This document shows positions 8,031-22,903 of a DNA stretch of 64,000 nt, one piece after another. The notes under the pieces were generated by a model, which worked only from the letters and a program-made list of their open reading frames with translations, did no database searches and was not told the DNA's origin. Made by a program: the position numbers and the translations under genes. Position 1 is the stretch's first letter, and every line of letters starts with the position of its first letter. Source of the stretch: Pyrinomonadaceae bacterium (GTDB taxonomy: Bacteria > Acidobacteriota > Blastocatellia > Pyrinomonadales > Pyrinomonadaceae); the NCBI GenBank assembly GCA_036559885.1, contig DATBSH010000320.1, positions 1,565-65,564 on the forward strand. Direction: 5' to 3'.

Positions 8031-8038
8031 ACGTCGAT

Positions 8039-9925
8039 ATGACCCCGCTTCTTTCAACTCTACTTCTCTTACAAACACCGACACCCACGCCACTCCCTAA
8101 CGTGCCCGAGAAAATGCCGGCGCTGTTCACATTGATCTATGTCGGCGGCCTCGGTCTTGTCGTACTGCTGCTCATGTTCAGTCTGCTTCGTAATCGTAAA
8201 CGACCCATCGGCGCTACTGAGATCGTGGGCGACCTTCCCAAAGATGTGCGAAAACGTCTGGGCTCAACGTCCACAAATCGAGGCCTACGCGCTTTACGCT
8301 GGCTGTTCATGTTACTCGTGATAGGTGTTTTCGGTTTCCATGTTTACTGGGCGCAATACGCAGCCGAGAAGAACGAGAAGTTCCAGCAGTTGAGCTACAA
8401 AGATTTGCGTGTTCGACGATTGTCGGAATCTACACTCCGTGGCTGGGTGCTCGATCGGAGTGGGCGTCTGGACCAACCCCTTGCTTACTATCGACGTGAC
8501 TCCAACGGGGATATTCATCGCGAATATCCGATGGATAAGGCGATGGCCCACATCTTTGGTTCGGATCGTGGCGACCCGGGATTAGAACGGGCGCTCTTCG
8601 GCGTTCAAAGCGGCGCCCTGCCTGAGGCTCTCGACATTGTTAGAGGCAGAGCAGTTCAATTCAAAGGCAATCAGGATGTGCGCCTGACAATTGATCGTTA
8701 TCTGCAACAAGCGGCTGTCGATCTATTGAAGGGCAAACATGGGGCAGTAGTAATGCTCAACCCTCAGAGTGGTGAAGTCCTGGCTTTATACAGCGAACCC
8801 TCGTACAGCCTGAAAGAAGTGGAAGACGAAGCTACATGGATTCGTTTGGAGGCCAATGAACGTGACAAGCCACTCGTCAGTCGTGCCCTTGGTGCCTATT
8901 ACATCCCAGGCTCGACTTTCAAAACGGTGACGATGACTGCGGCTTTTCTCGCGGGCGAGCAAGATACAGAGTTCACGTGCAGCGGCAGCGGCTACTATGC
9001 GGCACCAGGCGCAAACGTAATCTTCGACGACGGTGGGCCAGGCGAAGTGCACGGGCATATCGGTATCGAGACTGCCTATGAAGTTTCCTGTAACCAGTAT
9101 TTTGCGCAAATGGGCGTCAAGCTTGGGCCTGAAAGATTGAAACGCGCCGCTGAGTTACTGGGCATTGGGGCATACGACACGCCAAGCGAGGCTTTAAGAG
9201 GGCGAAAGCAACCTGAAATCTGGAACGGGAGTACCGAAGCAGTCAGGAAGGCGTTGGCTCCCAGAGAAGCAACTATTGTTACCGGCAAGCAGGTTACTCG
9301 ATACGATCTGGCTTTGATGGGTTATGGACAAGGTTACGCAGGCCAAATGACTCCATTTCAAATGGCGCTCGCGGCGTCGACGATCGGCAACATGGAAGGT
9401 CGGTTGATGAAACCAAAGATTGAGTTCAACCTTGCTCCACAGATCTTCAAACAAGTAGTTACACCGCAGACCGGCGCAATACTACGATCAATCATGGGTC
9501 TCGTAACAGGTGGACCAAGTGGTACTGCGAGAGGTGTTTTTGCACCGGTGAAGGCCGCCGGTATTAACACCGGCGGCAAAACGGGAACTGCTCAGAAAGT
9601 CGTTCCGCTTTATAACCCAAAAACAGGGGAACCGGTGACGCGACACAGAGTCGAAAAAGACAACCGCGGAAATATCATTCGAGAATACGATGAGGTTGTA
9701 ATGGACGATGAGCATCCGAGGATTGACGGGTGGTTCCTTTGCATTGCTCCGCTTGAGCGTCCGCAAATAGCGATCGCGGTGATTGTAGAGGGCGGAGGGT
9801 ATGGTTCTAAATCAGCCGCACCAATCGCAGCTGCTCTTGTGATGAAGGCGCGAGATCTTGGCTATTTCAACGCTCCACGTACGCCACCGCAGCCGCCGAC
9901 TGCCACAAGACCGAGGCAGAGGTGA
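8039..9925 (+). CDS. Class B penicillin-binding protein (peptidoglycan D,D-transpeptidase, PBP2/PbpA-like)
   Basis: N-terminal TM helix; SxxK = STFK, SxN = SCN, KTG = KTGTA, in the canonical order. Confidence 0.9.
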   Translation: MTPLLSTLLLLQTPTPTPLPNVPEKMPALFTLIYVGGLGLVVLLLMFSLLRNRKRPIGATEIVGDLPKDVRKRLGSTSTNRGLRALRWLFMLLVIGVFGFHVYWAQYAAEKNEKFQQLSYKDLRVRRLSESTLRGWVLDRSGRLDQPLAYYRRDSNGDIHREYPMDKAMAHIFGSDRGDPGLERALFGVQSGALPEALDIVRGRAVQFKGNQDVRLTIDRYLQQAAVDLLKGKHGAVVMLNPQSGEVLALYSEPSYSLKEVEDEATWIRLEANERDKPLVSRALGAYYIPGSTFKTVTMTAAFLAGEQDTEFTCSGSGYYAAPGANVIFDDGGPGEVHGHIGIETAYEVSCNQYFAQMGVKLGPERLKRAAELLGIGAYDTPSEALRGRKQPEIWNGSTEAVRKALAPREATIVTGKQVTRYDLALMGYGQGYAGQMTPFQMALAASTIGNMEGRLMKPKIEFNLAPQIFKQVVTPQTGAILRSIMGLVTGGPSGTARGVFAPVKAAGINTGGKTGTAQKVVPLYNPKTGEPVTRHRVEKDNRGNIIREYDEVVMDDEHPRIDGWFLCIAPLERPQIAIAVIVEGGGYGSKSAAPIAAALVMKARDLGYFNAPRTPPQPPTATRPRQR

Positions 9926-9932
9926 TGCGAAA

Positions 9933-9974
9933 ACCGGGACACACGGGGACGCGGGGACAAGGAGACGCGGAGAG
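9933..9974. repeat. Degenerate octamer array (ACCGGGAC / GCGGGGAC / AAGGAGAC / GCGGAGAG) in the PBP-SEDS spacer
   Basis: Read directly from the sequence. Confidence 0.6.
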
Positions 9975-9992
9975 GATGTTAGTCAGAAGAGC

Positions 9993-11684
9993 GTGAAGAA
10001 TAGAGCATCATCACATTTAATAATCATCCTGATGATACTTGCGCTGGAGATTGCAGGATACATCGCAGTGCATCGCGCGGGACTGCTGCGCGGATATGAA
10101 ACTCCAGTTATTGGTGGGGTGCGTGATCTGCTGATGTTTCTACCTCTAATCGTGTTAGCACTCTGGCTCTCCAGGCAAATGCGTTTCGGCGGCAATTGGG
10201 TCCTCTATACAACTGCGATATTGCTGTTTGCCTTCGGTATGCTGATTCAGTATCGCTTGTACAGTGACCCCGAATACAACGCGCGCAACAAGTCTGCTGC
10301 TCGCGAAGAAAAAATGCAGGCGCTGAGGATGCGGTACATCATGGAGAACTATGAGCCGCTGAAGAAGCAGATGATGGGCTTGCCGCCAACGCCGGCGCAA
10401 CCTATCGACATCGACAAGCTGCCCCGCAAAGAATCGACGTATTCACTCTGGAACGCAATCACTTCAGGATCCACCTGGATCCCGATTTTTTCCTTTTTGG
10501 CTTTTGCCCTTGCCTACTCTTTTTGCGTACGTGACGGGTTCCTGCTTTGGCTACAACGCAATAGCTTCATTATTGTTCTGCTGACACTATTGCCACTTTC
10601 AATTGCCGTGGTTACTTCAAGTGCTGGTAAAGCGCTCGGCAATATGACTCCCTGGGAGCCCTCAAAGATTCCGTTTCTTGTCGGCTTCGCCGGCATACTT
10701 ACTGCACGTTACAAGGATCTCGCGGAAACATATTGGGGAGTCCCGAGGGCGCGCGATATCGTGCCGCTGCTGGTAATGGCGGCACTTCCCTTTGTTCCGT
10801 TTTTTGCGCTCAAAGATTTTGGCCAAATGCTGATCTTCAGTGGCGCATACACGACGCTTTACCTGGTTGCGGTTCGGCGCTGGCCTCAGTTGCTACTGTT
10901 CGTTGGTTCAGTACTGCTGGTTATCAGCATCCTTGTTGTAGGGGCATTGCCGCGTGATGTGCAGGAGAAGGTTCCTCTCCTCCCAACCATTGCACGACCG
11001 ATCGGGACAGCCCTTCCTTCACGAATTCAACAGCGCTTTCACCTGTGGCTGGACGGATTCGATCCGCCGTCGCCCGAAGTCTCCTGGTGGAAAAAGGATT
11101 ATGAAGAGGCGCTGAATGAGAATCCCAAGTTACGCGAACTCGCTGAGCTGTCGCCAGCGATGCAAAAGTCTGTAAATGTAGACATCTGGTTCGACAAGCT
11201 AGCGTTTCAACCGGCGCAAGCTGTTTTCGGAATTGCGTCGGGCCGCGACACCGGGCGCGGATTCGGGCTCGGGTATCCGGAAGTCATCCCCATTGCCGAT
11301 TCCGATTATGTATACGCCGCTGTTGCCGAGGAAACCGGCTTGGCCGGAGGCGCTGTTGTGATGCTTGCCGTAGTCATATTTGTGATTGCGGGTGTTCGCA
11401 CTTCGCTCGAAGCGCGTGATATGTTTACAAAGCTTTGTGCAGCTGGTCTAACTGCATTCGTTGGGTTTCAAGCGTTGGTGAACGTGGGTGGTATTCTGCG
11501 GGCGCTGCCAATGACAGGAATCACGCTGCCGTTTGTCAGCCATGGAGGGTTTAGTCTGATCACGAGCTTTGCAATGCTCGGAATGTTAATGGCCTTCTCA
11601 AATCGCAACGCTCGTGATCGAGTGATTGCCGAGCGCGCGCCGACGAAAAATGTAACTCCCCTAAAGCTGGAGGCAGTGGAATGA
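9993..11684 (+). CDS. SEDS-family peptidoglycan polymerase (FtsW/RodA/SpoVE), unusually long
   Basis: About 10 TM helices; conserved DSDYVYAAVAEETGL and TGITLPFVSHGGFSL motifs. The track ORF starts at ATG 9858, 68 nt inside the PBP gene. I prefer GTG 9993 after the octamer-repeat spacer, but the start is uncertain. Confidence 0.85.
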   Translation: MKNRASSHLIIILMILALEIAGYIAVHRAGLLRGYETPVIGGVRDLLMFLPLIVLALWLSRQMRFGGNWVLYTTAILLFAFGMLIQYRLYSDPEYNARNKSAAREEKMQALRMRYIMENYEPLKKQMMGLPPTPAQPIDIDKLPRKESTYSLWNAITSGSTWIPIFSFLAFALAYSFCVRDGFLLWLQRNSFIIVLLTLLPLSIAVVTSSAGKALGNMTPWEPSKIPFLVGFAGILTARYKDLAETYWGVPRARDIVPLLVMAALPFVPFFALKDFGQMLIFSGAYTTLYLVAVRRWPQLLLFVGSVLLVISILVVGALPRDVQEKVPLLPTIARPIGTALPSRIQQRFHLWLDGFDPPSPEVSWWKKDYEEALNENPKLRELAELSPAMQKSVNVDIWFDKLAFQPAQAVFGIASGRDTGRGFGLGYPEVIPIADSDYVYAAVAEETGLAGGAVVMLAVVIFVIAGVRTSLEARDMFTKLCAAGLTAFVGFQALVNVGGILRALPMTGITLPFVSHGGFSLITSFAMLGMLMAFSNRNARDRVIAERAPTKNVTPLKLEAVE

Positions 11685-13147
11685 GCGATAACGCAAAAGC
11701 CTTCACCATTCGAGCTTCTGCCCTTTCTGATCGCGGTCTTAATGAGCGACGACCTCTCAACGAGGATTCTTTTCTCGCTGACGTCGATCGATCCATCTTC
11801 GCCGTGGCTGACGGGGTGGGAGGCGCTGAAGCGGGTGAAGTAGCCTCACAAACGGCAATCGAGGTGCTAGACGAAGCATTCCGTCATCAAGAGGACGGCG
11901 CAGACGTCGAAGACCTGATGGAACTGGCCATTCAACGTGCCAACGCTTCGATTCACCAGATGGCCCAGGAGCACGCAAAGTTTTCTATGATGGCGACGAC
12001 TATCGTAGCCCTTCATCTGGACGGGAACGTGGCTACCTTTGGGCACGTCGGTGATTCACGACTCTATCGTCTAACGCCTGACGGCAAACTCCACCGCGAA
12101 ACAGAAGATCACTCGGTCGTTGAAGAGGAGGTTCGCGCTGGAAGGATGACCGCCGAACAGGCTGCCAATCATCCGAGTAAGAACGTAATCAGTCGAGCAC
12201 TTGGCGCTGAGGACACTGTTGAAGTCGACATGAAGACAATGGACGTCGAAGAAGGGACGGAGTTCCTGTTATGCACTGACGGCATCACGCGGCATGTGTC
12301 AGATAACGAAATTCGGCAGTTGCTCATCGTAAACGATGATCTCGAGTCAACCTGCGCCGAACTTAAACGCAGATGCTATGAGCGTGGCGCTGAAGACAAC
12401 CTAACAGTGGTCGTCGTGCGTGCAGGAAAGCGGGTGCCCATTGAAGCTCGAACTGAAGAATTTGAGTCAACGATATCGCCGGATCACTTGCAGCCCGAGC
12501 CTCAAGCCACTGCGCCGGCCTTTATTCCTGCTTCGCGCATCGCCTTTCCTGCTCCGAGCGCAGACGGCGCCGCCGTCGAAACGAATAGACCCGTGGTTGT
12601 TGGAACCCCTCCAAGCAAATCAACGGGTATTGGAAAATTCTTCGGCTTGCTATTCGTGTTGCTGCTCGTTGGGGCTGCGTTTTACGCGGGTGCTCGTTAT
12701 CACGAACGAGTGCCCTTTCTCGCAGCGATGAACAACAAGCCGACGCCGCTTCCCTCCCCCACTCCTATACCCGAAGATCCAATTCTGACCTTTGAGCGTA
12801 GTCGCCGCGAAGTAGATCGAGACCCGCACAACTGGCTAAACACACAGATTCCGAAAGAGCTCGTAGGTTCCGGTGTCCAGAGTGCCCTGGACTCTCCCAA
12901 CCCGGAGTTCTTGTATTTGTATGGTCGCGCCAACCTGTTGACGGGAAACCCGGATGAGGCGTACCGAGCGTTTGAAGCCGCCATCACGAGAGCCGGTGCC
13001 GGCGAATCCGGTACGTTTGGAACAATCAAGAAGGAAGCAGCTCTCGGTCTTGCCGCGGCAAGCCTGAAGACGCAAGCGGGCCGACAGAAGGCGCTACTTC
13101 ATTACGACGAAGCGATGAAGCCTCCTGGCGCGTCAGGTTCCCCTTAG
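11681..13147 (+). CDS. PP2C-family Ser/Thr phosphatase with a C-terminal TM segment and an extracytoplasmic tail
   Basis: PP2C motifs NEDSF, AVADGVGG, LCTDGIT, DNLTVVVV. TM segment FFGLLFVLLLVGAAFYAGA. Start overlaps the SEDS stop (ATGA). Confidence 0.9.
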   Translation: MSDNAKAFTIRASALSDRGLNERRPLNEDSFLADVDRSIFAVADGVGGAEAGEVASQTAIEVLDEAFRHQEDGADVEDLMELAIQRANASIHQMAQEHAKFSMMATTIVALHLDGNVATFGHVGDSRLYRLTPDGKLHRETEDHSVVEEEVRAGRMTAEQAANHPSKNVISRALGAEDTVEVDMKTMDVEEGTEFLLCTDGITRHVSDNEIRQLLIVNDDLESTCAELKRRCYERGAEDNLTVVVVRAGKRVPIEARTEEFESTISPDHLQPEPQATAPAFIPASRIAFPAPSADGAAVETNRPVVVGTPPSKSTGIGKFFGLLFVLLLVGAAFYAGARYHERVPFLAAMNNKPTPLPSPTPIPEDPILTFERSRREVDRDPHNWLNTQIPKELVGSGVQSALDSPNPEFLYLYGRANLLTGNPDEAYRAFEAAITRAGAGESGTFGTIKKEAALGLAAASLKTQAGRQKALLHYDEAMKPPGASGSP

Positions 13148-13207
13148 ATTCGTTCCCGATTGGCCTGGCGCGCATCTAAGAGAATTGATGCCAGTCAGGG
13201 TTGAAGA

Positions 13208-14743
13208 ATGTCAGAACTAAAGCTTCAGCAAAGCAGACTCGACGGCCGCTACGACATTTTGGAGTGTCTCGGACGTGGCAGCTACGCCGAAATATATGTG
13301 GCCAACGACAATGCTGCGCCGCAGGGAGCACCCCGAACAGTCGTTATCAAAGCGCTAAATCTAAATCTGCAGGACACGCCAGACGCAGAACTTGAACGAA
13401 CGCTCGTTACGAATTTTCAAAACGAAGCAGTTGCACTAGACCGCGTGCGCCACGCCCACGTCATCAATCGTCTCGGACACGGCACCGCCATCGATCTCGC
13501 CGGCACAACGTTTCATTACATTGTGCTCGAGTATTTGCCGGGCGGCGACATGGGCCGCCTGACGCGTGCTCGCCCTCTGTCGATTGAAAGGGCGCGCTCC
13601 TATCTCGAGCAGGTGTGCTCTGGATTAGCACATGCCCACAAGTGCGGCGTGATTCACCGAGATATCAAACCGCAGAACCTATTACTTACCGCCGATCAGC
13701 AGATTGTGAAGATCGCTGATTTCGGAGTAGCTCGTCTGGATGCACACGACGGGGCGATCACTCGAGTTGGTACGAACATTTATTCGGCGCCGGAGCACAA
13801 CCCACTGGTTCATACAGGTCAATTGGATATCGCGGCAATCGCTTCGTCCCGGGACCATCTGACGCCGGCGGCGGACATCTATTCGCTGGCTAAGACAACC
13901 TACACGCTCCTCGCTGGTGAATCACCACGACGGTTTGCACAACACACCATCACGGAATTACCGGCGCCGGTTGCCCAACAACCATGGGCGGATGCGGTTT
14001 TACGGGTTTTGAAAAAGGCTACTCAGAATCGACCTGATCAGCGATACCAAACTGTAGAACACTTTTGGGACGATCTTTACGAGGCAAGTCTGCCGCCGAC
14101 AATTCGGTTGCCTACCTTAGCAGAGGTTGTTGAGCAGCGCCGAAAACCAAGCGAAGATCTTGTCGTGGCGCAAGAAGTGCTCACGCAAGCAGCACCGCCC
14201 ACAGCGCAATTCGCACCCGAAACAAATAGTTCCGCCCGCTTGGAAACACAGGCGCAGCCGCGTCCTCGGATAGTAGTACCGGTTACCCCCGAAGAGCGGC
14301 AACAACTTCGGAGGCGCCGCAGGTTTTTGTTAAGTCGAAGACAAGCCAAACCTAAGGAACCGGAGATTCAGTCGGTGCTGCCGGCTAGCCGTGGTAAGCG
14401 CGCCTTGGTTGCGGTCGGTTTGATTCTCGCGTTTTCTGGAATGTTACTCGCAACGCACAAGTACGTGACATCTCGTTGGAATCCGCTATCGACAATCCCG
14501 CAGATCGGGCAGACTTTCATCGTCGGTCGAGAAGGTGTTACAACGACCGACGTAAAGTTGCGGCCGGACGCCAGTACCGCCAGACCTGAGATCGGACTGG
14601 CGGAACTTGGCTCCAAAGTGAAAGTCATCAGTGAGAACAACAACTGGTACGAAGTTCAAGTACTTGAACACGGACGTCCGAAGTCGGATCCTTACTCGTC
14701 TGACCGGGGCTGGCTCAACAAGCGATTCGTAAAATTTGAATGA
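13208..14743 (+). CDS. Hanks-type Ser/Thr protein kinase with a TM segment and a C-terminal SH3b-like ectodomain
   Basis: GRGSYAEIY Gly loop, VVIKAL Lys, HRDIKPQNLL, DFG, SAPE. TM segment ALVAVGLILAFSGMLLA. C-terminal VKVISENNNWYEVQVL is SH3-like. No PASTA repeats seen. Confidence 0.9.
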   Translation: MSELKLQQSRLDGRYDILECLGRGSYAEIYVANDNAAPQGAPRTVVIKALNLNLQDTPDAELERTLVTNFQNEAVALDRVRHAHVINRLGHGTAIDLAGTTFHYIVLEYLPGGDMGRLTRARPLSIERARSYLEQVCSGLAHAHKCGVIHRDIKPQNLLLTADQQIVKIADFGVARLDAHDGAITRVGTNIYSAPEHNPLVHTGQLDIAAIASSRDHLTPAADIYSLAKTTYTLLAGESPRRFAQHTITELPAPVAQQPWADAVLRVLKKATQNRPDQRYQTVEHFWDDLYEASLPPTIRLPTLAEVVEQRRKPSEDLVVAQEVLTQAAPPTAQFAPETNSSARLETQAQPRPRIVVPVTPEERQQLRRRRRFLLSRRQAKPKEPEIQSVLPASRGKRALVAVGLILAFSGMLLATHKYVTSRWNPLSTIPQIGQTFIVGREGVTTTDVKLRPDASTARPEIGLAELGSKVKVISENNNWYEVQVLEHGRPKSDPYSSDRGWLNKRFVKFE

Positions 14744-14776
14744 CGTTGAATCAGGTGCCGAACAGGAGATTTTGTT

Positions 14777-15631
14777 TTGGGGCTGCTTGAGTCGATAAGA
14801 AAATGGATTGATGGCGAGACCGGCGAGGATCTGCTGGAAGCAGCTGATGAGCACGCCAAGCCTCGTCGGGTATGGGAAGAGTTTCTCGTAAAGATTGCGC
14901 GCGAAGTGGAAGCAGCTATGCAGCGCGAGATGTTCACGCCTCCCGGCGGTCCAACATATATCCCTCGCGAATACATCGTCTACTTGAGTGCCGACGATGA
15001 CAAAGACTGGCAAGGCGACAAACGACGCGGCCTCGAACAAGGTCTCTTTCATGTTCTCTCTGAGAGAGCACGCGAACTGAGTGGCTCGACGCAGCTGGCC
15101 GTGAAGTCCTTTGCTGTGGAGTTACGAGTGGACGGGACGCTCGAGAAAGGACAATTTCGCGTCCAGCCCGTTTGGGATGAGACGGAAAGCGGGCACACGA
15201 TGGTGACGCCGCGCGCCGATCCAAGTCGAGCGTCAACAACTTTCAATCCGAACGAGACGATTCGCGAGACGGCTGAAAGCGTCGAGAGTGAACAGACGGT
15301 TGTGCGGCCCAAAGCAGCGCCGCTCTATTCAATTGAGGTTTGGCGTGAAGGTGTTCGTGAGGCAGTGGTTCCCGTAATGAAGCCCGAAATATCTATTGGC
15401 CGCGGGTCGCGAAGCGTGTCGGTCGATCTCCCGATCAAAGGTGATCCTGAAGTGAGCCGCGTCCATGCGCTGTTGTCACGGGATAATGAAGGTCGATTCT
15501 GGCTAGTGGCGAAGGGGCGAAATCCGACCCTGGTGGCTGGCCGTGAGTTGCCGCGGGAAGAAGCAACAGAGATCGCTCCCGATCAAAAGATCGGAATCTG
15601 TAACTTTGTTTTGCGTATCCAGCCGAAGTAG
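14777..15631 (+). CDS. Second FhaA-like FHA-domain protein
   Basis: N-terminal region resembles the first FHA protein (VEAAMQREMF...YIPREYIVYLS). C-terminal FHA ISIGRGSRSVSVDLPIKGDPEVSRVHALL. TTG start. Confidence 0.85.
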   Translation: MGLLESIRKWIDGETGEDLLEAADEHAKPRRVWEEFLVKIAREVEAAMQREMFTPPGGPTYIPREYIVYLSADDDKDWQGDKRRGLEQGLFHVLSERARELSGSTQLAVKSFAVELRVDGTLEKGQFRVQPVWDETESGHTMVTPRADPSRASTTFNPNETIRETAESVESEQTVVRPKAAPLYSIEVWREGVREAVVPVMKPEISIGRGSRSVSVDLPIKGDPEVSRVHALLSRDNEGRFWLVAKGRNPTLVAGRELPREEATEIAPDQKIGICNFVLRIQPK

Positions 15632-15650
15632 ATCACCAGCAGATTCTCCA

Positions 15651-16910
15651 TTAATTCTGCGCCGCAGCCGTTGTTGGTTTTGAGGTTCGTAACTCGGCGA
15701 TGAGTTCTTTTAGAAGCGTTGGTACTTGTTCGTCCTCGAGGTAGCCCTTTCCAAGGATTTTAATGATCCGGCGTTCCTTTGTTTCGCCGGTCACTTCTTT
15801 CAATATCGCACGCGCAAACGCTGCTACGACACTCGGATCAAATTGCGTCCCGCTGTTCTGACGAAGATCTCTTACAACATCCTCGAATGATCGCCGTCGC
15901 CGGTACGGCCGATCTGTGGTCATCGCGTCGAACGAATCAGCCAACGACACGATCTTCGCCCCAAGCGGGATCTGCTCGTCGACGAGCCCATCCGGATAGC
16001 CACGTCCATCCAGCCGCTCATGGTGATATTTCGCCATCAGCGGAATATCTGCGTACGGATGATTGATTGGCGCGAGTATTTCGTAGCCCGCAGATGGATG
16101 GCGGCTAAGCTCACTCGACGTCTTCGCATTGATGTGATACGGCGCATTGATAATGTCGCGATCCACAACGAGCTTACCTACATCGTGCAGATACCCCGCG
16201 ATTTGAATGCCCTCGACTTCCTCTTCGCTCCAACCCATCTCCCGCGCAATAATTTCGCTGTACTTACCAACGCGTTCTGAATGGCCCTGTGTGTATTTGT
16301 CTTTGATATCGATCGCCGCAGCGAACGCTCTCACAGTATCGCGGTATATTGCCCGCAACTCCTCATACAAACGACGGTTCTCTTCAGCCCGCTGCGCAAC
16401 TTGATCAAGCAGCTGGTGAGTGTGAATCCCAACACCTATATGCCGCGCCATCGCGCGGACAATCTCGAAGTCCTCTGGAGTAAAGTCGTCACCACTCGCT
16501 TTATCCCCGAGCAACACAAAACCTGTCAACGCTCCGCGAACGGTCATAGGTATTACAATCTCGATACCACTTGTTTCCAGCACGCTGCGGTAGCGGGCGA
16601 TGAAACCTGTGTCGTTCGCGTTCTTGACAAGTAACGAAGATAGGCCGGCGCTTAGCAGTGGATCTTTCTCTTCTTCCCGAATCTGGAAGTCAGATATAGC
16701 GTCCTTTTCCAGGCCCCAGATCGCGACACAACTTAGTGAGTCGTTGGAAGAGCATTCAACGACCGCACCCCGCCGCAACGCCAACGTTCCCAGGAGTAAA
16801 TGCATTGACGTCTGGACCATTTCATTGAAGTCGCCGGTATTAGCAACCTCCTGGCCCAGATCAGCGAGCGCGCCGAAGGTGTGGATCAGTTGCTGATTCG
16901 ATTGGTCCAT
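15651..16910 (-). CDS. GAF-domain HD-GYP c-di-GMP phosphodiesterase
   Basis: HD-GYP signatures HDVGK and HHERLDGRGYPDGL, with an N-terminal GAF-like region. Confidence 0.9.
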   Translation of the reverse strand: MDQSNQQLIHTFGALADLGQEVANTGDFNEMVQTSMHLLLGTLALRRGAVVECSSNDSLSCVAIWGLEKDAISDFQIREEEKDPLLSAGLSSLLVKNANDTGFIARYRSVLETSGIEIVIPMTVRGALTGFVLLGDKASGDDFTPEDFEIVRAMARHIGVGIHTHQLLDQVAQRAEENRRLYEELRAIYRDTVRAFAAAIDIKDKYTQGHSERVGKYSEIIAREMGWSEEEVEGIQIAGYLHDVGKLVVDRDIINAPYHINAKTSSELSRHPSAGYEILAPINHPYADIPLMAKYHHERLDGRGYPDGLVDEQIPLGAKIVSLADSFDAMTTDRPYRRRRSFEDVVRDLRQNSGTQFDPSVVAAFARAILKEVTGETKERRIIKILGKGYLEDEQVPTLLKELIAELRTSKPTTAAAQN

Positions 16911-16922
16911 CTGTGATGGTAA

Positions 16923-17300
16923 CTAGTGAACTGTCGGGAGAGCCGGCAAAACAGAAAGTCCAGACAGAGCTTCTTTCTCGTCTTTTGCCAGGACCACATG
17001 TCTGGTCAGCCCAAGCATGTCGAAGAGCGCGACGGTTTGATTGTTTACATCTGAGAACACGATTTTCGCGCCGTGCTTCTCAGCCAGACCGATTATGCCC
17101 AGAAGGATCGAGATGCCGATGCTGTTAACCAGTTCGGTATCGCTAAAGTCGATAACAAGCGCATGACAGCCAGCGTCGAGTTGGCGACGGCATTCACGTT
17201 CGATCTTTTCGCCTGTCAGTTTATTGAGGTAGTCGCTCGCGTAAACAACCGCGGTGGTGCCAACACAGTGCGACCGGATGGCAATGCTGCTCGTTTCCAT
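16923..17300 (-). CDS. STAS-domain anti-sigma-factor-antagonist-like protein
   Basis: ORF 16923..17345. The ATG at 17300 (METSS...) has GGAGGGAG upstream. STAS core ALVIDFSDTELVNSIGISILLG carries the conserved phosphorylatable Ser. Confidence 0.85.
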   Translation of the reverse strand: METSSIAIRSHCVGTTAVVYASDYLNKLTGEKIERECRRQLDAGCHALVIDFSDTELVNSIGISILLGIIGLAEKHGAKIVFSDVNNQTVALFDMLGLTRHVVLAKDEKEALSGLSVLPALPTVH

Positions 17301-17349
17301 TCGAGAGCTCCCTCCGCTTCGAATGAGTTCAGGATAAAAAAGCAAGGGG

Positions 17350-19617
17350 TTAGGTAGAACTACCGCGTAGATACTTTGTCATTCGAAGGCGAGTGCCATC
17401 GTCTACTCGCTCGAATTCGACCTCATCCATTAACGACCTGATTAGCTTCAGGCCCCATCCGCGCCGTTCTTCCGCAAGGTCAGCCGCTTCATGGTTTTGA
17501 TTGTTTGCGCCACCGCTGATGTTAGTTGGCACAACGCCGCGGCTCGAGATGGTGACGACTAATCTATCACTTTCGACGCGAAAGCGCTGATAAATTTTTC
17601 TATCGGGGCTGAAGCTGTGCTCGGAGGCATTAATACACGCTTCTACAATGGCCGTCTTGATCTGGTTGATAGCCTCGGGCCGAAAGTCTAGACGACGCGC
17701 GATTTGTTCGACCGTATTAGCGGCCAGTAGTTCGTTGTCCTCTCCCATGGGCACAACCACGAGGAACTCATCCGCTGGACCCATTGGTCCCATGGGCCGG
17801 GCAGCCTGAGCGCCTATACGGTCGAGCAGTAGCTCAACTTGCGGGCGACTCGAGCTAAAGGCGCCTCGCCGTGCCAACCGTGATCCGGCCTCATCAGTAA
17901 ACCCTTCGTTCGATAGCAGCCAGATCTGATGCCGTCTAAACCCCGCCCGGCCAGCCAGGCGTTCCAGCCGTTCGCACCAGAGCTCGGCCAGTTCCGGATC
18001 AACCTCTAATTTGGCTTCGATATCGGCCACGAGCCACACAACTTCCCGAGCATCGGTGTACACGCCCTCCTCGAACGTGTGCGCGACCATGCACCGGTTT
18101 TCGTCGACCACCTGTCGCAACTCTGGATCGAAGGATATGGCGCTGGCTACGTGAACAACTTGCGGTAACGAGATTAGCGCTGTCTCTGCCTCTAATACTG
18201 TCGCGGTTTCTTCCTGAGTGGCACCTTTCAGTCTAGCGCTGAAACGTGAATAGTCGAAAAGGATTGCGGGCAGACGTTGTCCATCAAATTGGGCCAGCAG
18301 TTCACGCAACTCGTATCGCGCGACCCGCTTGTACTGGCGGGCCATGGTGTGCGGCGCGCGCTTTAGGGAATCAGTTAACGTGTCAGTAACAACGAGAGCT
18401 CGCGCGTCGTTGAGGACATTCAAACGGTAGCGGGTTTTCAAGTAATCTTTCCACGCTTGTGGTCCATCAGCGAACTCAATGTAATTACCGTCCCAGTTTA
18501 CGAACTCTTGTATATGTAGATGGTGCAGGATGTTTTCGAGTTCGTCGCCCCTGATGTGCAACCGTCGACGACATGCTTCAAATGATGCAGCACGCTGTTC
18601 GGAAGCAAGTGATTCCCACAACAAACGAATCAGGTTTAAGCGAGTGTCGGCTGCCGGCGCTGCCTCCTCGAGCAAATCAGCAAAATGATTTTGCAGTCGC
18701 CCGCCGAGCAGCTCATCGATGTATAGACGTTCACAATCGAGATAAGAAGTTAAAGCCGTATTTTTCTCGCGGGCTGCATGAAGGAATGTAGTAATAAAGA
18801 ATGGACTACAGTTGAACTGTTGAACTAATAGGTCGCGCGCTTCCTCGCTAGTAGAAACCTGTTGCCGTCGCGCCAGATGCTCTACCAACATTCGCGCTTC
18901 TTCAACGCTCAGTTGTTCAAGTCGCAGCACATCCAGCGTTTCAAAGTCAAGCTTGGCATTGTAGGCTGACCTGAGGATCTGTCTACGTAAGCCGGCGAGA
19001 ACATATGAGACTGTCGCCCGACCAAACACGCGCAGAATTTCTGTGCCGAGAACAACCGTTCCATTTAGGTTTTCCGCAAGCTGAGCACCATCAAGCATCA
19101 CAAACGCGCGCCCGGATTTCGCCGGAATTCTCTGCGGCGCACTCAGACAAAAACGGACTAGCGCTTTGTCATCGTTACTGAATCTCTGCCGTTCGTAAGC
19201 TTCTACGAGTTGTTGGACCCATTCAAAATCAGCTGGAGGGGTTAGTTCAAGTAGATCGTGCAAGGTGAGCGCTGCATGGCATAGCGATGGCTCATCTCTC
19301 CGATAAGCGATGTATTGTTGCAGGAACGCATTTAGAAATTCGATTGCGGCACTAACTGCCGTTGTCTCGGTTCGCGTAAATGCGAAATAGATCGGAATAA
19401 CATCGGAGCGCTGGTTGAAGACTTCATCGTAAGCTTGTCGAAGCAGTTCCGAAACACCGGCCGACGGCTCCATCAACAGCAACAATCCGCGCCCCTGGTT
19501 CTCGCGTGATGCCTGTGAGACAACTCGCTGCAACTCCTCGGCGCGACCGACAAACTCCTGGCGGGCTACGCGCCCGAGAACGCGGCGAATTCTTCCGCTG
19601 GAGCTTGAACCGTTCAT
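17350..19617 (-). CDS. 755-aa multidomain protein: degenerate AAA_16/STAND-like N-terminus, PD-(D/E)XK-like middle region, C-terminal RsbW/SpoIIAB-type Ser kinase (HATPase_c)
   Basis: N-terminus FVGRAEEL...LLLLMEPSAGVSELL. Middle WLVADIEAKLEV...IWLLSNEGFTDEAGSRLARRG. C-terminus IVEACINASEH...RGWGLKLIRSLMDEVEFERVDDGTRLRM. Confidence 0.85.
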   Translation of the reverse strand: MNGSSSSGRIRRVLGRVARQEFVGRAEELQRVVSQASRENQGRGLLLLMEPSAGVSELLRQAYDEVFNQRSDVIPIYFAFTRTETTAVSAAIEFLNAFLQQYIAYRRDEPSLCHAALTLHDLLELTPPADFEWVQQLVEAYERQRFSNDDKALVRFCLSAPQRIPAKSGRAFVMLDGAQLAENLNGTVVLGTEILRVFGRATVSYVLAGLRRQILRSAYNAKLDFETLDVLRLEQLSVEEARMLVEHLARRQQVSTSEEARDLLVQQFNCSPFFITTFLHAAREKNTALTSYLDCERLYIDELLGGRLQNHFADLLEEAAPAADTRLNLIRLLWESLASEQRAASFEACRRRLHIRGDELENILHHLHIQEFVNWDGNYIEFADGPQAWKDYLKTRYRLNVLNDARALVVTDTLTDSLKRAPHTMARQYKRVARYELRELLAQFDGQRLPAILFDYSRFSARLKGATQEETATVLEAETALISLPQVVHVASAISFDPELRQVVDENRCMVAHTFEEGVYTDAREVVWLVADIEAKLEVDPELAELWCERLERLAGRAGFRRHQIWLLSNEGFTDEAGSRLARRGAFSSSRPQVELLLDRIGAQAARPMGPMGPADEFLVVVPMGEDNELLAANTVEQIARRLDFRPEAINQIKTAIVEACINASEHSFSPDRKIYQRFRVESDRLVVTISSRGVVPTNISGGANNQNHEAADLAEERRGWGLKLIRSLMDEVEFERVDDGTRLRMTKYLRGSST

Positions 19618-19635
19618 GGTTTTCGGTGTTCTGAG

Positions 19636-21309
19636 CTAATCGCGATAGAAGACCGTGCGATTCTTACCCTGGCTCTTCGCCTGGTACAGAGCACGATCGG
19701 CTGCGGCAACAACTGTTTCCGCAGTGTTCACGATTTCAGAGAACGTCGAGACGCCAACGCTGACACTTACGCGTCCCAACGGTTGCGACTTTCCGTGGGG
19801 ATAATGGGTCGTAGCGACGCGACGCCGGATGCGATCGGCAATCGCGCCAGCTTCGTCGACGGAGGTTTGGGGTAACAGGATACAAAATTCTTCGCCGCCA
19901 TATCTCGCCGGGACGTCGGCCGAGCGCAACGTCGCCTTCAAGCAGTGCGCCGTAATCTGCAACGCAAGATCACCAGCCTGATGTCCGTTGTTGTCGTTGT
20001 ACGCCTTGAAATCGTCGATGTCGATCATGAGGAAGCTCATCGCGTAGTTGTAGCGCTTCGATCGATTCAGCTCTTCAGTTAGACGCTCCTGGAGGTAACG
20101 CCTGTTGGGCAGGGCTGTGAGCGGATCTGTAATCGACATCAGCTGGAACTCTGTCGCACGTTCCTGCCACTCGGCACGCTCCAACGCCACTGCTACCTGT
20201 GGCCCGATGATCTCCAACAAGCTAAGGTCAACCTGATCGTAAGAGCTGCCATCAGATTTATCCGTTACATTGAGGACCCCAATCTTTCTGCCCCCGATTA
20301 TTATTGGATAACTGATGAATGATTTCGTCTTGTACATTCGTTCAGCCGGAGCGGCAGTGAGTCCTTCAGTATCGAGGTCCCGAACCATCAGAGCTTTGCC
20401 CGTCTGTAACACCTCACCTGAGATCCCCTCACCCATCTGCAGGCGTCCGACTGAAGTTGGGTCGGTGGCAAATCCTACGGCTGCCTTAACGATCAGTTGA
20501 TTGGCCGTCTCATCAAACACCATGAGCGATGCACGTTCCGATTGCATCAGCTCTCTGGAATTGGTGAGGATTGATTCGTAGGTTTTGGCTGGGTTATCTG
20601 AACTTATGCGCTCAAGAAAATGTTGTAACGAATCAGCGAACCGTGATCGGTATTCGAGTTCGCTTCGCAAGCGCGCGACTTCCTGCTCCAATTGATCATG
20701 TCTATCAACGGCAATCTCGGGTTTTGCTTTAACCCCGGCAGTAGCCTTCTGCGAATTAGCCTGATTGGTCCCATTCGACGATGCTGCTGTGACCTTGCCT
20801 GCGGCTCGGTTCACACGCTCGGAAAGATGATGCAATCGTTCAGTCTCGGCAAAAACGATGTTCTTAAAGACGTCCGTTGACCCAAGCTCTTGCAAATCTC
20901 CACTGCGTAACCGCTCAACCAGGTTCTGGTAATCCGCACTTTTAACAAACGCGCGACCGCCAATTACTGCAAGGTTGCGCTTACTCCCAATCTCTACGGG
21001 CTGAGTAAAGCATTGAAGACCTGCGTGGCACTTGTATTGGACCATCGTACCCGCGCTCATCGCTCGCTTGTGTGCCTCGCCGCAATATGGATCACACAAC
21101 TTCACGTAATCGGGGGACGATTGGAATGCCTCGCAAATCGAATTGTTATTCGACACTGCAATGGCCGGCGGTTGTCGCCCGTTGACTAAGAGAAGCGACA
21201 AACCTGCAGCCGCTGCCAACGCTTCCTGGGTTTCTTTCCAACCTAAAGGGGCGTCTTCCGGATGTTCCTGCACAATGGCGGAACCCGATTTGGGGGATTT
21301 CTTGACCAT
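19636..21309 (-). CDS. PocR-like sensor, coiled coil, GAF and GGDEF diguanylate cyclase
   Basis: Cys-rich N-terminus (SICEAF...LCDPYCGEAH...YKCHAGLQCF), GAF region, active-site GGEEF, and the I-site RSAD five residues upstream. Confidence 0.9.
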   Translation of the reverse strand: MVKKSPKSGSAIVQEHPEDAPLGWKETQEALAAAAGLSLLLVNGRQPPAIAVSNNNSICEAFQSSPDYVKLCDPYCGEAHKRAMSAGTMVQYKCHAGLQCFTQPVEIGSKRNLAVIGGRAFVKSADYQNLVERLRSGDLQELGSTDVFKNIVFAETERLHHLSERVNRAAGKVTAASSNGTNQANSQKATAGVKAKPEIAVDRHDQLEQEVARLRSELEYRSRFADSLQHFLERISSDNPAKTYESILTNSRELMQSERASLMVFDETANQLIVKAAVGFATDPTSVGRLQMGEGISGEVLQTGKALMVRDLDTEGLTAAPAERMYKTKSFISYPIIIGGRKIGVLNVTDKSDGSSYDQVDLSLLEIIGPQVAVALERAEWQERATEFQLMSITDPLTALPNRRYLQERLTEELNRSKRYNYAMSFLMIDIDDFKAYNDNNGHQAGDLALQITAHCLKATLRSADVPARYGGEEFCILLPQTSVDEAGAIADRIRRRVATTHYPHGKSQPLGRVSVSVGVSTFSEIVNTAETVVAAADRALYQAKSQGKNRTVFYRD

Positions 21310-21612
21310 CCAACAAAGTTCGCGTGCGTCTGGGCTCGAGTTGAAGTCGGCGCTTCGGAAATCACAGGGATTTCACGTTGACTCAAAAAGCTGAAAGGCA
21401 AAGCGCGTTTAGGCAATCAGTATAAAATTCAAACTCAAGCCTTACAACTACTTAACCAGCGTCTCTTCCTTCTTCACCTCAACCGCACGATAAAGGCTGG
21501 AATGTACCCTACAGGTAAATGTCGAATCGGGTTGGTTTTTCGCTTGAACGGCGGTTGATTTGAGGTGGGCTCTCCCTCGTAGGGATTACGAGTAGCAGGA
21601 GTGAATGGGCCC

Positions 21613-21648
21613 CCGAAAAGAAAGGCACCCTCGAACGAGGGTGCCTTT
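21613..21648 (-). terminator. Intrinsic terminator of the opp-like operon
   Basis: Perfect 13-bp arms AAAGGCACCCTCG (21621..21633) / CGAGGGTGCCTTT (21636..21648). On the minus strand they are followed by CUUUUC. Confidence 0.7.
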
Positions 21649-21685
21649 CGAGATCAAAATTACGTCGGGTCGACTCTAGGTGCTT

Positions 21686-21760
21686 CTAACGCCGACGTTT
21701 GTTAAACCGACGACGCAAGCCAGCGGCGGCGCCGACAAGGCCAGTTCCAAATAGGAGCAT
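21686..21760 (-). pseudogene. Orphan PEP-CTERM sorting-signal remnant
   Basis: The minus strand reads (TAA)-KPGPEPASMLLFGTGLVGAAAGLRRRFNKRRR-TAG, that is a PEP motif, a hydrophobic helix and an Arg cluster. There is no upstream body or signal peptide, and it is in frame with the oppF-like stop codon directly after it. Confidence 0.5.
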
Positions 21761-21784
21761 GCTTGCCGGTTCGGGCCCTGGTTT

Positions 21785-22903
21785 TTAAGAATGTTGGCCA
21801 CTTTCTAACCCCGGTGCGGCGCCAGGTGCGACGTCTTCAATGTTGGGATGGTCCGGACTTATCCGAATACATGCCGCAAAGTGGTTGGGCTTTATTTGGA
21901 CCAGCTTTGGAACGACTTCTTTGCAGGTCTCAATCATATAGGGACATCGAGTGTGGAAGCGACAGCCCTGCGGCGGATTGATAGGCGAGGGCACATCGCC
22001 TTCGAGAACTATGCGTTGTCGAGTTGCTTCGATTTCCGGATCCGGAACGGGAACAGCTGAGATCAAGGCTTTCGTGTAAGGCATCAATGGCTCGGCATAT
22101 ATGTCCTTGGCGTTAGCAAGTTCGACAAGCTTTCCCAAATACATCACCGCCACGCGATCCGATACATGCCTGATGGCTCTCAGGTCGTGCGAGATGAAGA
22201 GATACGTCAGATGCTTTTCTCTTTGCAGCCGTTCTAACAAGTTCATGATCTGAGCTTGAATCGAAACGTCGAGCGCAGAGATCGGTTCATCAGCAACGAT
22301 AAAATCAGGATCGACAGCAAGCGCGCGCGCAATTCCAATTCTTTGACGTTGCCCGCCGGAAAACTCGTGTGGATACCGTTTGATGAAACGCTTGCTCAAA
22401 CCAACGGTTTCCAATAACTCCTGCACGCGCTTCTCCGCTTCTTCACCACTTGCCAGATCGAATGTCTCAAGTGGTTCCCCAACGATCTGACCGACAGTCA
22501 TTCGAGGATTCAACGAGGCATAGGGATCTTGAAAAATGATTTGCAGATGACGTCTTTGCTCGCGCAGTCTTTTTCCAGACAGATGCGCAAGATCCGATCC
22601 CTTGTACAGGACCTCTCCCGCAGTCGGAGGAATAAGATGGAGAACCGCACGGCCCAACGTCGACTTGCCGCAACCAGATTCGCCTACGAGTCCGAGTGTC
22701 TCGCGTGCATAGACATCGATCGTAACGCCATCAACTGCCTTCACCACGCGCTTTTCGGTGTTAGTTCCGACTAGCTTGTCGACAAGGCCACCTCCACCAA
22801 GATCGAAATGAACCTTTAGGTCTCGAATGGAGATGAGCGGTTCGTCACCAGCAGCTTGCGGCGGCGGAACACTCGGATTTGCGATGAACTCCTGCGTGCT
22901 CAT
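21785..22903 (-). CDS. Oligopeptide/dipeptide ABC transporter ATP-binding protein (OppF/DppF-like) with a C-terminal extension
   Basis: Walker [10 protein letters not shown], signature FSGGQRQR, Walker [14 protein letters not shown]-terminal Cys-containing Opp-type domain. Confidence 0.9.

Follow-up and report, generated by a model that had tools for sequence, protein, structure and literature searches.

The locus described here raises the question of what an RsbW-like protein does when only its C-terminal GHKL domain is matched by Pfam and NCBIfam models run on the whole sequence. The gene lies on the minus strand of a stretch of 64,000 nucleotides (nt) from a Pyrinomonadaceae bacterium (positions 1,565 to 65,564 of contig DATBSH010000320.1, assembly GCA_036559885.1), referred to as the window. 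It encodes a protein of 755 amino acids (aa), which we call X; labels of the type P0262 and L092 stand for representatives and loci of its family. An initial annotation had described X as a three-part protein built from a dead STAND/AAA_16-like NTPase, a Mrr/DUF234-like middle and an RsbW-type kinase, in an implied anti-sigma setting. We find X in a conserved operon with a STAS protein and two enzymes of cyclic di-GMP (c-di-GMP) metabolism. By analogy with known partner switches we propose, with slightly better than even confidence in the wiring, that X stands at the centre of a partner-switch module for c-di-GMP, made up of four genes that are conserved together.

An operon of X with c-di-GMP enzymes

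The open reading frame (ORF) of X starts with ATG and runs over 755 codons to a TAA stop codon at 17350-17352. It is the second gene of a tight operon on the minus strand, in the order PocR-GAF-GGDEF, X, STAS, GAF-HD-GYP:

19636..21309, minus strand: PocR-GAF-GGDEF diguanylate cyclase, 18 nt upstream of X (Pfam; GGEEF and RxxD I-site intact)
17350..19617, minus strand: X, whole gene, multidomain RsbW-like protein (ORF list, translation check, 99-67% identical full-length homologues)
16923..17300, minus strand: STAS-domain partner resembling anti-sigma antagonists (Pfam STAS 2.1e-10; start and ribosome-binding site)
15651..16910, minus strand: GAF-HD-GYP phosphodiesterase, 12 nt downstream of the STAS gene (Pfam HD_5 2.4e-33; HDVGK and GYP motifs)

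The gaps measure 18 nt between cyclase and X, 4 nt between X and STAS (49 from the ATG start) and 12 nt between STAS and HD-GYP. As called mechanically, the STAS ORF begins with a TTG at 17345, 4 nt past the X stop codon; the ATG at 17300, which lies 45 nt further in and follows the ribosome-binding site GGAGGGAG, is the probable start and gives a protein of 125 aa. All 78 of 78 STAS orthologues carry an invariant Ser, aligned with S58 of SpoIIAA and S56 of RsbV, within the motif T-E-L-V-N-S-I-G-[VI]-S-I-L.

No sigma-70 family gene was found among the ORFs in about 10 kb around the operon, nor at distant loci. The implied anti-sigma setting was thus not borne out: no sigma factor gene is near, and the conserved partners are c-di-GMP enzymes. 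The sole sigma-related gene among the checked ORFs within about 15 kb encodes a response regulator with receiver, sigma-54 activator and HTH_8 parts (31017-32534, minus strand); a sigma-54 activator with TPR repeats also occurs near P0262 (L081). A scan of 15400-22000 with Rfam returned no family, c-di-GMP riboswitches included, and promoter-like or terminator-like sites around the operon were not commoner than in shuffled sequences.

Conservation of the protein and of its gene neighbourhood

Among 5.8 billion proteins, a word-indexed search found 1199 relatives. The best 120 of these have a length of 742-762 aa, cover 98-100% of the query and share 67-99% identity with X; where names are given, they read 'RsbW' or 'ATP-binding protein [Pyrinomonadaceae bacterium]'. 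An exhaustive HMMER search limited to the first 610 residues as query found 511 clusters (50% identity) at E<=1e-3, and the best 150 of them are mostly 700-780 aa long, matching the query over residues of about 10-605 at identities down to 22%. Shorter entries among those 150 look like fragments. Since a query restricted to the N-terminal part finds 511 clusters, the whole architecture of X, not the C-terminal domain alone, constitutes an old conserved family. This family is large, uncharacterised and acidobacterial.

With one genome taken for each GTDB species, a pattern scan confirmed at least 588 relatives of X, the best 80 of which were examined for gene context. With identities of 47-69%, almost all of these 80 carry the label Pyrinomonadaceae, Blastocatellia or Acidobacteriota. 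Essentially all of the loci that are long enough show the order GGDEF, X, STAS, HD-GYP. A GGDEF gene adjoins X in all 80 loci and in most of the distant members sampled, and wherever loci were examined the HD-GYP gene is paired with the STAS gene. Across these 80 genomes X is a single-copy gene in synteny with genes for housekeeping and signalling. As this synteny takes in the flanks, we rely on a handful of distant loci for the decisive evidence:

P0262 (25% identity, intact P-loop): the same four genes
P0268 (intact P-loop): X, STAS, HD-GYP
P0228, P0141, P0248, P0281, P0337 and P0390: GGDEF directly upstream of X
P0390 (subclade with Asn in the G1 box, G1=Asn): STAS/HD-GYP pair about 7 kb downstream
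P0294 (Nitrospirota short form): PTP-type (PTP/DSPc) phosphatase, X, STAS, GAF-HD-GYP, EAL

P0229/P0281 and P0248 have no STAS gene nearby, and their GHKL domain is degenerate (E-values for HATPase_c_2: 5.9e-5 and 1.4e-3). At L064, L067, L072 and L092 (10254-17246), 2-7 kb of unrelated genes lie between X and the STAS/HD-GYP pair, at L092 including a PIN-domain gene, proteases and Ogg. Given these separations in a few genomes, the four-gene module behaves as two separable pairs. X is tightly linked to the upstream cyclase and, in most lineages, also to the downstream STAS/HD-GYP pair.

Three further observations concern single loci. A 3.9-kb contig binned as 'Deltaproteobacteria bacterium' (L016, VBKE01000560.1) encodes an X of 60% identity, flanked by GGDEF and STAS genes as in the Pyrinomonadaceae loci; the contig is probably acidobacterial and was assigned to the wrong bin. 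About 7 kb away from the P0281 locus there is a PilZ-domain gene (L090 361-1044). In both G1=Asn loci examined, a DUF2383 gene is located divergently upstream of GGDEF (L091 4882-5412; L092 4956-5495).

Domain architecture of X

Translation of 17350..19617 (minus strand) confirmed the ORF of the initial annotation and every peptide it had quoted: FVGRAEELQRV at aa 22-32, GRGLLLLMEPSAGVSELLRQ at 42-61, AFVMLDGAQ at 171-179, VVWLVADIEAKLEV at 526-539, HQIWLLSNEGFTDEA at 563-577, EACINASEH at 659-667 and RGWGLKLIRSLMDEVEF at 719-735. In 24 close relatives L45-P51, G54-L58, M174, D176-G177 and the GHKL boxes are all invariant. Among 91 diverse relatives, which serve as family representatives for all column counts below, the same holds for G54, F573 and E659 (91/91 each), while D176 is kept in 90, S/T56 in 89, N663 in 88 and K536 in 84. 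Being conserved in both sets, these features are under selection and not a product of chance.

An AlphaFold2 model of the full protein, built on the 91 diverse members, reached a mean predicted local distance difference test score (pLDDT) of 90.4 and a predicted template modelling score (pTM) of 0.84. Five parts can be distinguished: an AAA+ core with lid, a winged helix, a helical linker, a domain of PD-(D/E)XK fold and the GHKL domain. The three-part layout first proposed therefore stands at the level of folds, having overlooked the winged helix (about aa 321-385) and the helical linker (about aa 386-436). We regard the domain assignments as highly confident.

The C-terminal GHKL domain

17353..17769, minus strand, aa 617-755: RsbW/SpoIIAB-type GHKL domain, HATPase_c_2 (Pfam, PDB sequence match, Foldseek)
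17530..17550, minus strand, aa 690-696: G1 box ISSRGVV, with Ser692 in place of the DxGxG Asp, then conserved Arg693 (HMMER alignments, column counts)

The Pfam model HATPase_c_2 (PF13581) matches aa 633-748 with 67.2 bits against a cutoff of 27.4 (E 1.8e-18), and the sequence match to the RsbW structure 6m36 reaches 1.5e-9. Foldseek aligns the domain with 6m36/6m37 at a TM-score (TMt) of 0.87-0.94 and a root-mean-square deviation of 2.1-3.2, and with SpoIIAB at a TMt of 0.74-0.77. The N box (ExxxNAxxH) is present with E659 in 91 members, N663 in 88 and H667 in 87; in the G2 box (GxGL, in X G720-W-G722-L) the two glycines are kept in 88 and 89. The NCBIfam equivalogs for RsbW and SpoIIAB are missed by X, with 58.3 against 145 bits for NF003144, 52.3 against 155 for TIGR01924 and 50.6 against 135 for TIGR01925.

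HMMER alignments pair S692-R693-G694 of X with D-E-G of RsbW and SpoIIAB. Column 692 holds Asn in 68 members, Ser in 23 and Asp in none, and R693 is found in 83 of the 91; the Nitrospirota short form has Thr at the position of the G1 Asp. In GHKL enzymes this Asp contacts the adenine base. In RsbT, we take D78 to be the G1-box position. RsbT D78N is kinase-dead, yet still binds RsbS and activates RsbU (PMC11821858). Since the Asp is gone in 91/91 members, matching this variant, kinase activity of X is doubtful, and we think it fairly probable that the domain is not a conventional ATP-dependent kinase. The remainder of the pocket is near-invariant, which argues that some ligand is still bound. 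Of the RsbW-type kinase first proposed, Pfam and TM-scores thus uphold the RsbW/SpoIIAB-type domain, and the word kinase is made doubtful by the replacement of the G1 Asp.

A decayed P-loop NTPase at the N-terminus

18913..19560, minus strand, aa 20-235: AAA+/STAND-type P-loop NTPase alpha/beta core of ATPase_2/AAA_16 kind, probably catalytically degenerate (model strands, Foldseek, homologue Pfam scores)
19447..19488, minus strand, aa 44-57: degenerate Walker A GLLLLMEPSAGVSE (column counts in 91 members, intact homologues at the same column)
19087..19110, minus strand, aa 170-177: Walker B strand RAFVMLDG (column counts, model strand 170-176)
18979..18996, minus strand, aa 208-213: end of strand beta-4, AGLRRQ, with R211-R212 (R212 85/91, R211 82/91)

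The N-terminal core is modelled with five parallel strands (44-49, 73-79, 170-176, 204-210 and 228-233). The top Foldseek match of this part in the PDB is 2qen (E 3.6e-8, 399 aligned columns, TMt 0.63), the Walker-type ATPase PABY2304 of Pyrococcus abyssi, which we take to be a structural representative of Pfam ATPase_2. It is followed by Apaf-1, ORC4, ORC1/Cdc6, CED-4, clamp-loader subunits, RuvB and plant NLRs (NRC2/4). X itself has no Pfam match in its N-terminal region at E<=1. Distant full-length homologues pass the gathering scores both of ATPase_2 (PF01637, 33.2; P0262 with 37.8 bits, P0268 with 38.7) and of AAA_16 (PF13191, 32.6; P0229 with 41.7 bits, P0228 with 35.8). The closest family of the N-terminus is ATPase_2.

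The Walker A of X reads MEPSAGVS, with Val55 at the Lys position, M49 and S52 in place of the first and middle Gly, and G54 and S56 kept. Where X reads LLLLMEPSAGVSEL, the group of P0262, P0268, P0229 and P0228 reads GSRGIGKSEV, GERRVGKTEV, GQPQVGKTEL and GPPRAGKTEV, and an intact GxxxxGK[ST] occupies this column in P0262, P0268, P0206, P0228, P0229, P0248, P0252 and P0258. The putative P-loop lies between strand 44-49 and helix 55-69, and AFVMLD forms strand 170-176, as in a Walker A/B topology. This flanking together with the intact homologues at the same column identifies MEPSAGVS as a genuine but decayed Walker A. The dead NTPase of the initial annotation is thereby corroborated, although its account of the P-loop was only partly right: the Lys is Val, and not all Gly are gone, G54 being invariant.

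The Lys is present in 10 of the 91 representatives and otherwise replaced by Ala (42), Val (10), Ser (9), Thr (6), Leu (6) or Cys (3). Its neighbours are far more constant, with P51 in 88, G54 in all, S/T56 in 89 and E57 in 85. In the Walker B strand D176 is conserved (90/91) and the second acidic position, 177, is Gly in X; across the family this position holds Asp in 35, Gly in 21 and Asn in 11 members, and Ala is also seen. STAND NTPases carry a sensor-1 Arg directly after strand beta-4, and R212 may be this residue, the equivalent of a 'TTR'-like motif. A STAND-type C-terminal repeat sensor (TPR, WD40 or LRR) was not found in X, where the C-terminal half consists of the nuclease-fold and GHKL domains.

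Winged helix, linker and nuclease-fold domain

18658..18912, minus strand, aa 236-320: helical lid plus helical domain that follow the NTPase core (modelled as helices over 238-319; profile matches to clamp-loader regions from Walker B to lid)
18463..18657, minus strand, aa 321-385: winged-helix domain (model; helix-turn-helix (HTH) matches of homologues; 2qen alignment spanning 399 columns)
18310..18462, minus strand, aa 386-436: two long linker helices from the winged helix to the middle domain (387-401 and 406-433 in the model)
17809..18309, minus strand, aa 437-603: sequence-orphan PD-(D/E)XK-fold domain (domain model, Foldseek)
18004..18036, minus strand, aa 528-538: [ED]-x-[DE]-x-K motif, WLVADIEAKLE (end of beta-3 of the nuclease-fold domain)
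17770..17808, minus strand, aa 604-616: disordered linker (pLDDT <50 at residues 606-613; length varies in alignments)

The winged helix is modelled with helices 323-338, 346-353 and 357-369 and strands 343-345, 373-375 and 379-382; at its position homologues give weak HTH matches (HTH_IclR, HTH_36, HVO_A0114). Modelled alone with 40 homologues, the middle domain (aa 436-606) reached a pLDDT of 96 and a pTM of 0.91. Its elements follow in the order helix, three antiparallel strands, long helix, strand, helix, strand, helix, which is the restriction-endonuclease fold, and the alpha-beta-beta-beta-alpha-beta core is present (helix 468-477, strands 486-492, 509-515 and 525-533, helix 541-558, strand 563-569). 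The best Foldseek match is MspJI (E 7e-3, probability 0.99), AF1548 reaches a probability of 0.97, and EndoMS/NucS, AspBHI, Can2, the Avs3 nuclease, Cdn1, Cap4, Mus81 and the La Crosse virus cap-snatching endonuclease are also matched. As the structural E-values are modest, the best being 7e-3, we assign a fold to this domain and not a family.

Sequence searches gave a corresponding picture. Pfam at E<=10 on 40 middle-domain sequences returned scattered single matches and none to Mrr_cat (PF04471), DUF234 (PF03008), NERD or a Cap4-type family; a profile of the domain run against PDB sequences yielded chance matches to designed helical proteins and nothing else. The PD-(D/E)XK fold of the middle part, as initially annotated, is thus retained, and its Mrr/DUF234 membership is not. 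D532-x-E534-x-K536 sits at the end of the third strand, the place expected for (D/E)xK, and forms a putative site. In the 91 members W528 is found in 82, an acidic residue at 532 in 72 and at 534 in 79, K536 in 84 and E538 in 72. E507 and Q593 are also conserved, and the motif is followed by a conserved segment, W566-L-I-x-x-E-G-F573-[ST]-x-E-A.

A short form of 545-572 aa occurs in Nitrospirota (P0289-P0299; L088 6001-7683), one cluster being labelled Dissulfurispiraceae. It consists of ATPase_2/AAA_16 with intact GKT, winged helix and GHKL domain and aligns to P0262 residues 8-409 and 631-769, so that the helical linker and the nuclease-fold domain are missing. The existence of this form suggests that the nuclease-fold domain is an insertion or optional module in an older ATPase_2-GHKL fusion.

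Loss of the Walker A lysine and correlated changes

In a rough neighbour-joining tree of the 91 representatives, rooted at the midpoint, the basal split separates a clade of nine members with the Walker A Lys from a large clade without it, in which P0184 is the single nested Lys-containing exception. The X family descends from, or is sister to, the forms with an intact P-loop. R211, next to R212, goes with the loss of the Lys: three members have K55 and R211, seven K55 and another residue at 211, 79 R211 in the absence of K55, and two neither. Likewise the middle-domain motif W-h-A-A-[ED]-h-[DE]-S/A-K-L-E is found in 67 of the 81 Lys-less members as against one of the 10 with Lys. These counts are not independent statistics, since they reflect essentially one evolutionary event. 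The coincidence of Lys loss, R211 and middle-domain motif is suggestive of a functional shift.

A proposed c-di-GMP partner switch and its alternatives

We propose that the GHKL domain of X would bind the STAS protein through the invariant Ser motif of the latter, in the manner of RsbW and RsbV. X would either phosphorylate this Ser or, its G1 Asp missing, merely sequester the STAS protein in a nucleotide-dependent manner. Free STAS protein might then bind and modulate the HD-GYP phosphodiesterase encoded beside it. The N-terminal body of pseudo-ATPase, winged helix and nuclease-fold domain would be the platform for oligomerisation and input that couples the switch to the co-encoded cyclase; a role in signal input, as the initial annotation also supposed, is plausible. 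As a net effect, synthesis and degradation of c-di-GMP would be set reciprocally.

Several points weigh against this proposal. The wiring between X, STAS protein and enzymes rests on gene order only, and most of the 80 loci are not independent evidence, because the Blastocatellia region is syntenic throughout, including the ABC transporter and FHA/STK/PP2C genes of the flanks. The G1=Asn subclade has its STAS/HD-GYP pair some 7 kb away (L092) or not within 8 kb (L091). No dedicated PP2C phosphatase is present in the operon, and with the G1-box Asp absent there may be no kinase step. A partner switch also leaves unexplained what the nuclease-fold domain and its conserved ExDxK motif are for.

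The missing G1 Asp also bears on two explanations that keep the RsbW-like domain at the centre. X could be a classical anti-sigma serine kinase whose sigma factor is encoded elsewhere, with the STAS protein as antagonist and the c-di-GMP link as mere co-regulation. The HATPase_c_2 domain with its sub-threshold RsbW/SpoIIAB equivalog matches, the strong structural match to RsbW and SpoIIAB and a cognate STAS gene with an invariant Ser would suit such a kinase. However, there is no gene for a sigma factor within some 10 kb (only the sigma-54 activator at 31017-32534), the NCBIfam scores for RsbW and SpoIIAB (58 and 51 bits) are far under their cutoffs (145 and 135), the Asp is missing, and STAS-HD-GYP and X-GGDEF pairings recur across phyla, so that we consider this explanation unlikely. 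A variant of the proposed switch would have X as a pure pseudo-enzyme scaffold that binds STAS protein and cyclase stoichiometrically, without a phosphorylation cycle. It agrees with the lost Walker A Lys, with the operon lacking a PP2C phosphatase and with Ser or Asn for the G1 Asp in 91/91 members, as in the kinase-dead, partner-binding RsbT D78N (PMC11821858). It remains the less probable form of the model in our view, although a possible one: the near-invariance of E659/N663/H667, G720/G722 and R693/G694 argues for ligand binding, the Ser of the STAS protein is invariant, and a PTP-type phosphatase gene lies directly 5' of the Nitrospirota short form.

Two other explanations start from the N-terminal and middle domains. 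A STAND-like NTPase joined to a nuclease-fold domain with conserved ExDxK, and the appearance of Avs3, Cap4, Can2 and MspJI among the structural matches, recall anti-phage defence proteins of the STAND/Avs type, in which X would combine an NTPase switch with a DNA-cleaving PD-(D/E)XK effector. PADLOC, however, gave no match for X or P0262 and a marginal mad8 match for P0229 only; the P-loop is dead in the very clade that bears ExDxK, the C-terminal repeat sensor is missing and the conserved partners are signalling enzymes. Moreover the locus is single-copy, syntenic and vertically inherited in the 80 best-matching genomes and forms no variable island. With PADLOC negative for X we rejected this reading, which we hold to be highly improbable. 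X might also be a DNA-associated transcriptional or chromosomal regulator of ATPase_2/ORC-Cdc6-like type, tuned by the STAS protein, as the structural matches include DNA-bound ORC1/Cdc6 and the clamp loader, a winged helix is present and PD-(D/E)XK domains usually act on nucleic acids. Against it, the putative recognition helix ELENILHHLHIQEF is not basic, ATPase activity appears to be lost and no conserved DNA-related genes are nearby; we regard such a role as very unlikely.

Within the partner-switch model, the two 'dead' pockets of X might have been re-tuned rather than abandoned. X would then be a guanine-nucleotide-sensing partner switch with feedback from c-di-GMP/GTP to cyclase and phosphodiesterase, an idea we offer as speculative and rather doubtful. 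Asn/Ser-Arg in place of Asp-Glu in the G1 box would switch the base preference from adenine to guanine (GTP or c-di-GMP), and the gain of R211 beside the sensor Arg would be a relocation in the 'with-no-lysine' style that keeps phosphate binding. The ExDxK site of the nuclease-fold domain could be a further ligand or catalytic site. If this were true, X would be a feedback sensor of the messenger under its own control.

Partner switches, each an RsbW-type kinase with its STAS antagonist, and c-di-GMP signalling are two main decision circuits of bacteria, and only rarely has one been found to drive the other. In the X family a single switch protein is linked with both a cyclase and a phosphodiesterase, and the family spans the Blastocatellia, abundant soil Acidobacteriota with almost no known signalling biology. 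It also provides a natural series on the path from enzyme to pseudo-enzyme, comprising forms with intact P-loop, Lys-less forms with the new Arg and ExDxK, and the short form, and could show whether a GHKL domain without the G1 Asp still binds nucleotide.

Genes next to the operon

A plus-strand cluster at 7173-15631 converges on the c-di-GMP operon:

7173-8030, plus strand: FhaA_N-FHA
8039-9925, plus strand: penicillin-binding protein (PBP) transpeptidase
9858-11684, plus strand: FtsW/RodA
11681-13147, plus strand: PP2C-TPR phosphatase with hydrophobic segment
13208-14743, plus strand: Ser/Thr kinase (STK) with C-terminal SH3
14777-15631, plus strand: second FhaA_N-FHA

The cluster recalls the cell-wall signalling genes fhaA-fhaB-pstP-rodA-pbpA-pknA-pknB of actinobacteria, although it lies in an acidobacterium, and its FHA, kinase and PP2C genes are kept beside the operon in many Blastocatellia loci. 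As listed, the ORFs of PBP and FtsW/RodA overlap by 68 nt, the TTG start of the latter being probably placed too far upstream. The PP2C phosphatase was considered as the phosphatase of the switch and set aside, since it is part of this separate FhaA/PBP/RodA/STK cluster and is missing at distant loci.

Comparison with known systems

Each domain of X falls into a known fold class, and partner switches feeding into c-di-GMP are already known. A literature search for the fusion or the module returned analogous systems (Hsb, Sia, stressosome) only and not the X family. It turned up no paper on the combination, in line with the initial annotation, which knew of no characterised protein that unites the three parts. 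Judged by the searched literature, the following features are new: an RsbW-like domain is fused to an ATPase_2-type (pseudo)ATPase, a winged helix and a nuclease-fold domain; the G1 Asp is systematically missing; STAS and HD-GYP are constantly paired; and intact, Lys-less and short forms make up a natural series.

With RsbW/SpoIIAB and RsbV/SpoIIAA the system shares the fold and the N and G2 boxes of the C-terminal 135 aa of X, as well as a following STAS gene with a phosphorylatable Ser. X differs in being five times larger, with about 615 extra N-terminal residues, in having Ser/Asn for the G1 Asp and in lacking a nearby sigma partner. Like ATPase_2 (2qen, 2fna; 'ATPase domain predominantly from Archaea') and AAA_16, it has FVGR-x-x-EL, a P-loop, a Walker B of the hhhhD type, the beta-4 Arg, lid and winged helix; unlike them, it lost the Walker A Lys and two of three Gly, has Gly as the second Walker B acidic residue and carries this domain in fusion with nuclease-fold and GHKL domains. 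The middle domain has the alpha-beta-beta-beta-alpha-beta core and the acidic-x-acidic-x-Lys at the end of the third strand in common with MspJI/AspBHI, EndoMS/NucS, Cap4, Can2, Avs3 and AF1548. In contrast to PD-(D/E)XK nucleases it shows no Pfam sequence relationship, has weak structural E-values (7e-3 or worse) and sits inside a signalling protein.

The nearest functional parallels are partner switches controlling diguanylate cyclases in Pseudomonas aeruginosa, namely HsbR-HsbA-HsbD (PMC5085249) and SiaABCD (PMC8457831). In those systems a GGDEF cyclase is encoded with an RsbW-like kinase and with a partner that phosphorylation switches, either the STAS-domain protein HsbA or SiaC; the X operon has the corresponding set of RsbW-like protein, STAS protein and cyclase. 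What they set is the level of c-di-GMP and not a sigma factor, which we propose likewise for X from its gene context. The Hsb and Sia kinases are small or fused to receiver and PP2C domains, and a PP2C phosphatase is part of those systems. The X module, in contrast, has no phosphatase in its operon, bears a pseudo-ATPase, a winged helix and a nuclease-fold domain on the kinase-like protein itself, and has an HD-GYP protein as the constant neighbour of its STAS switch.

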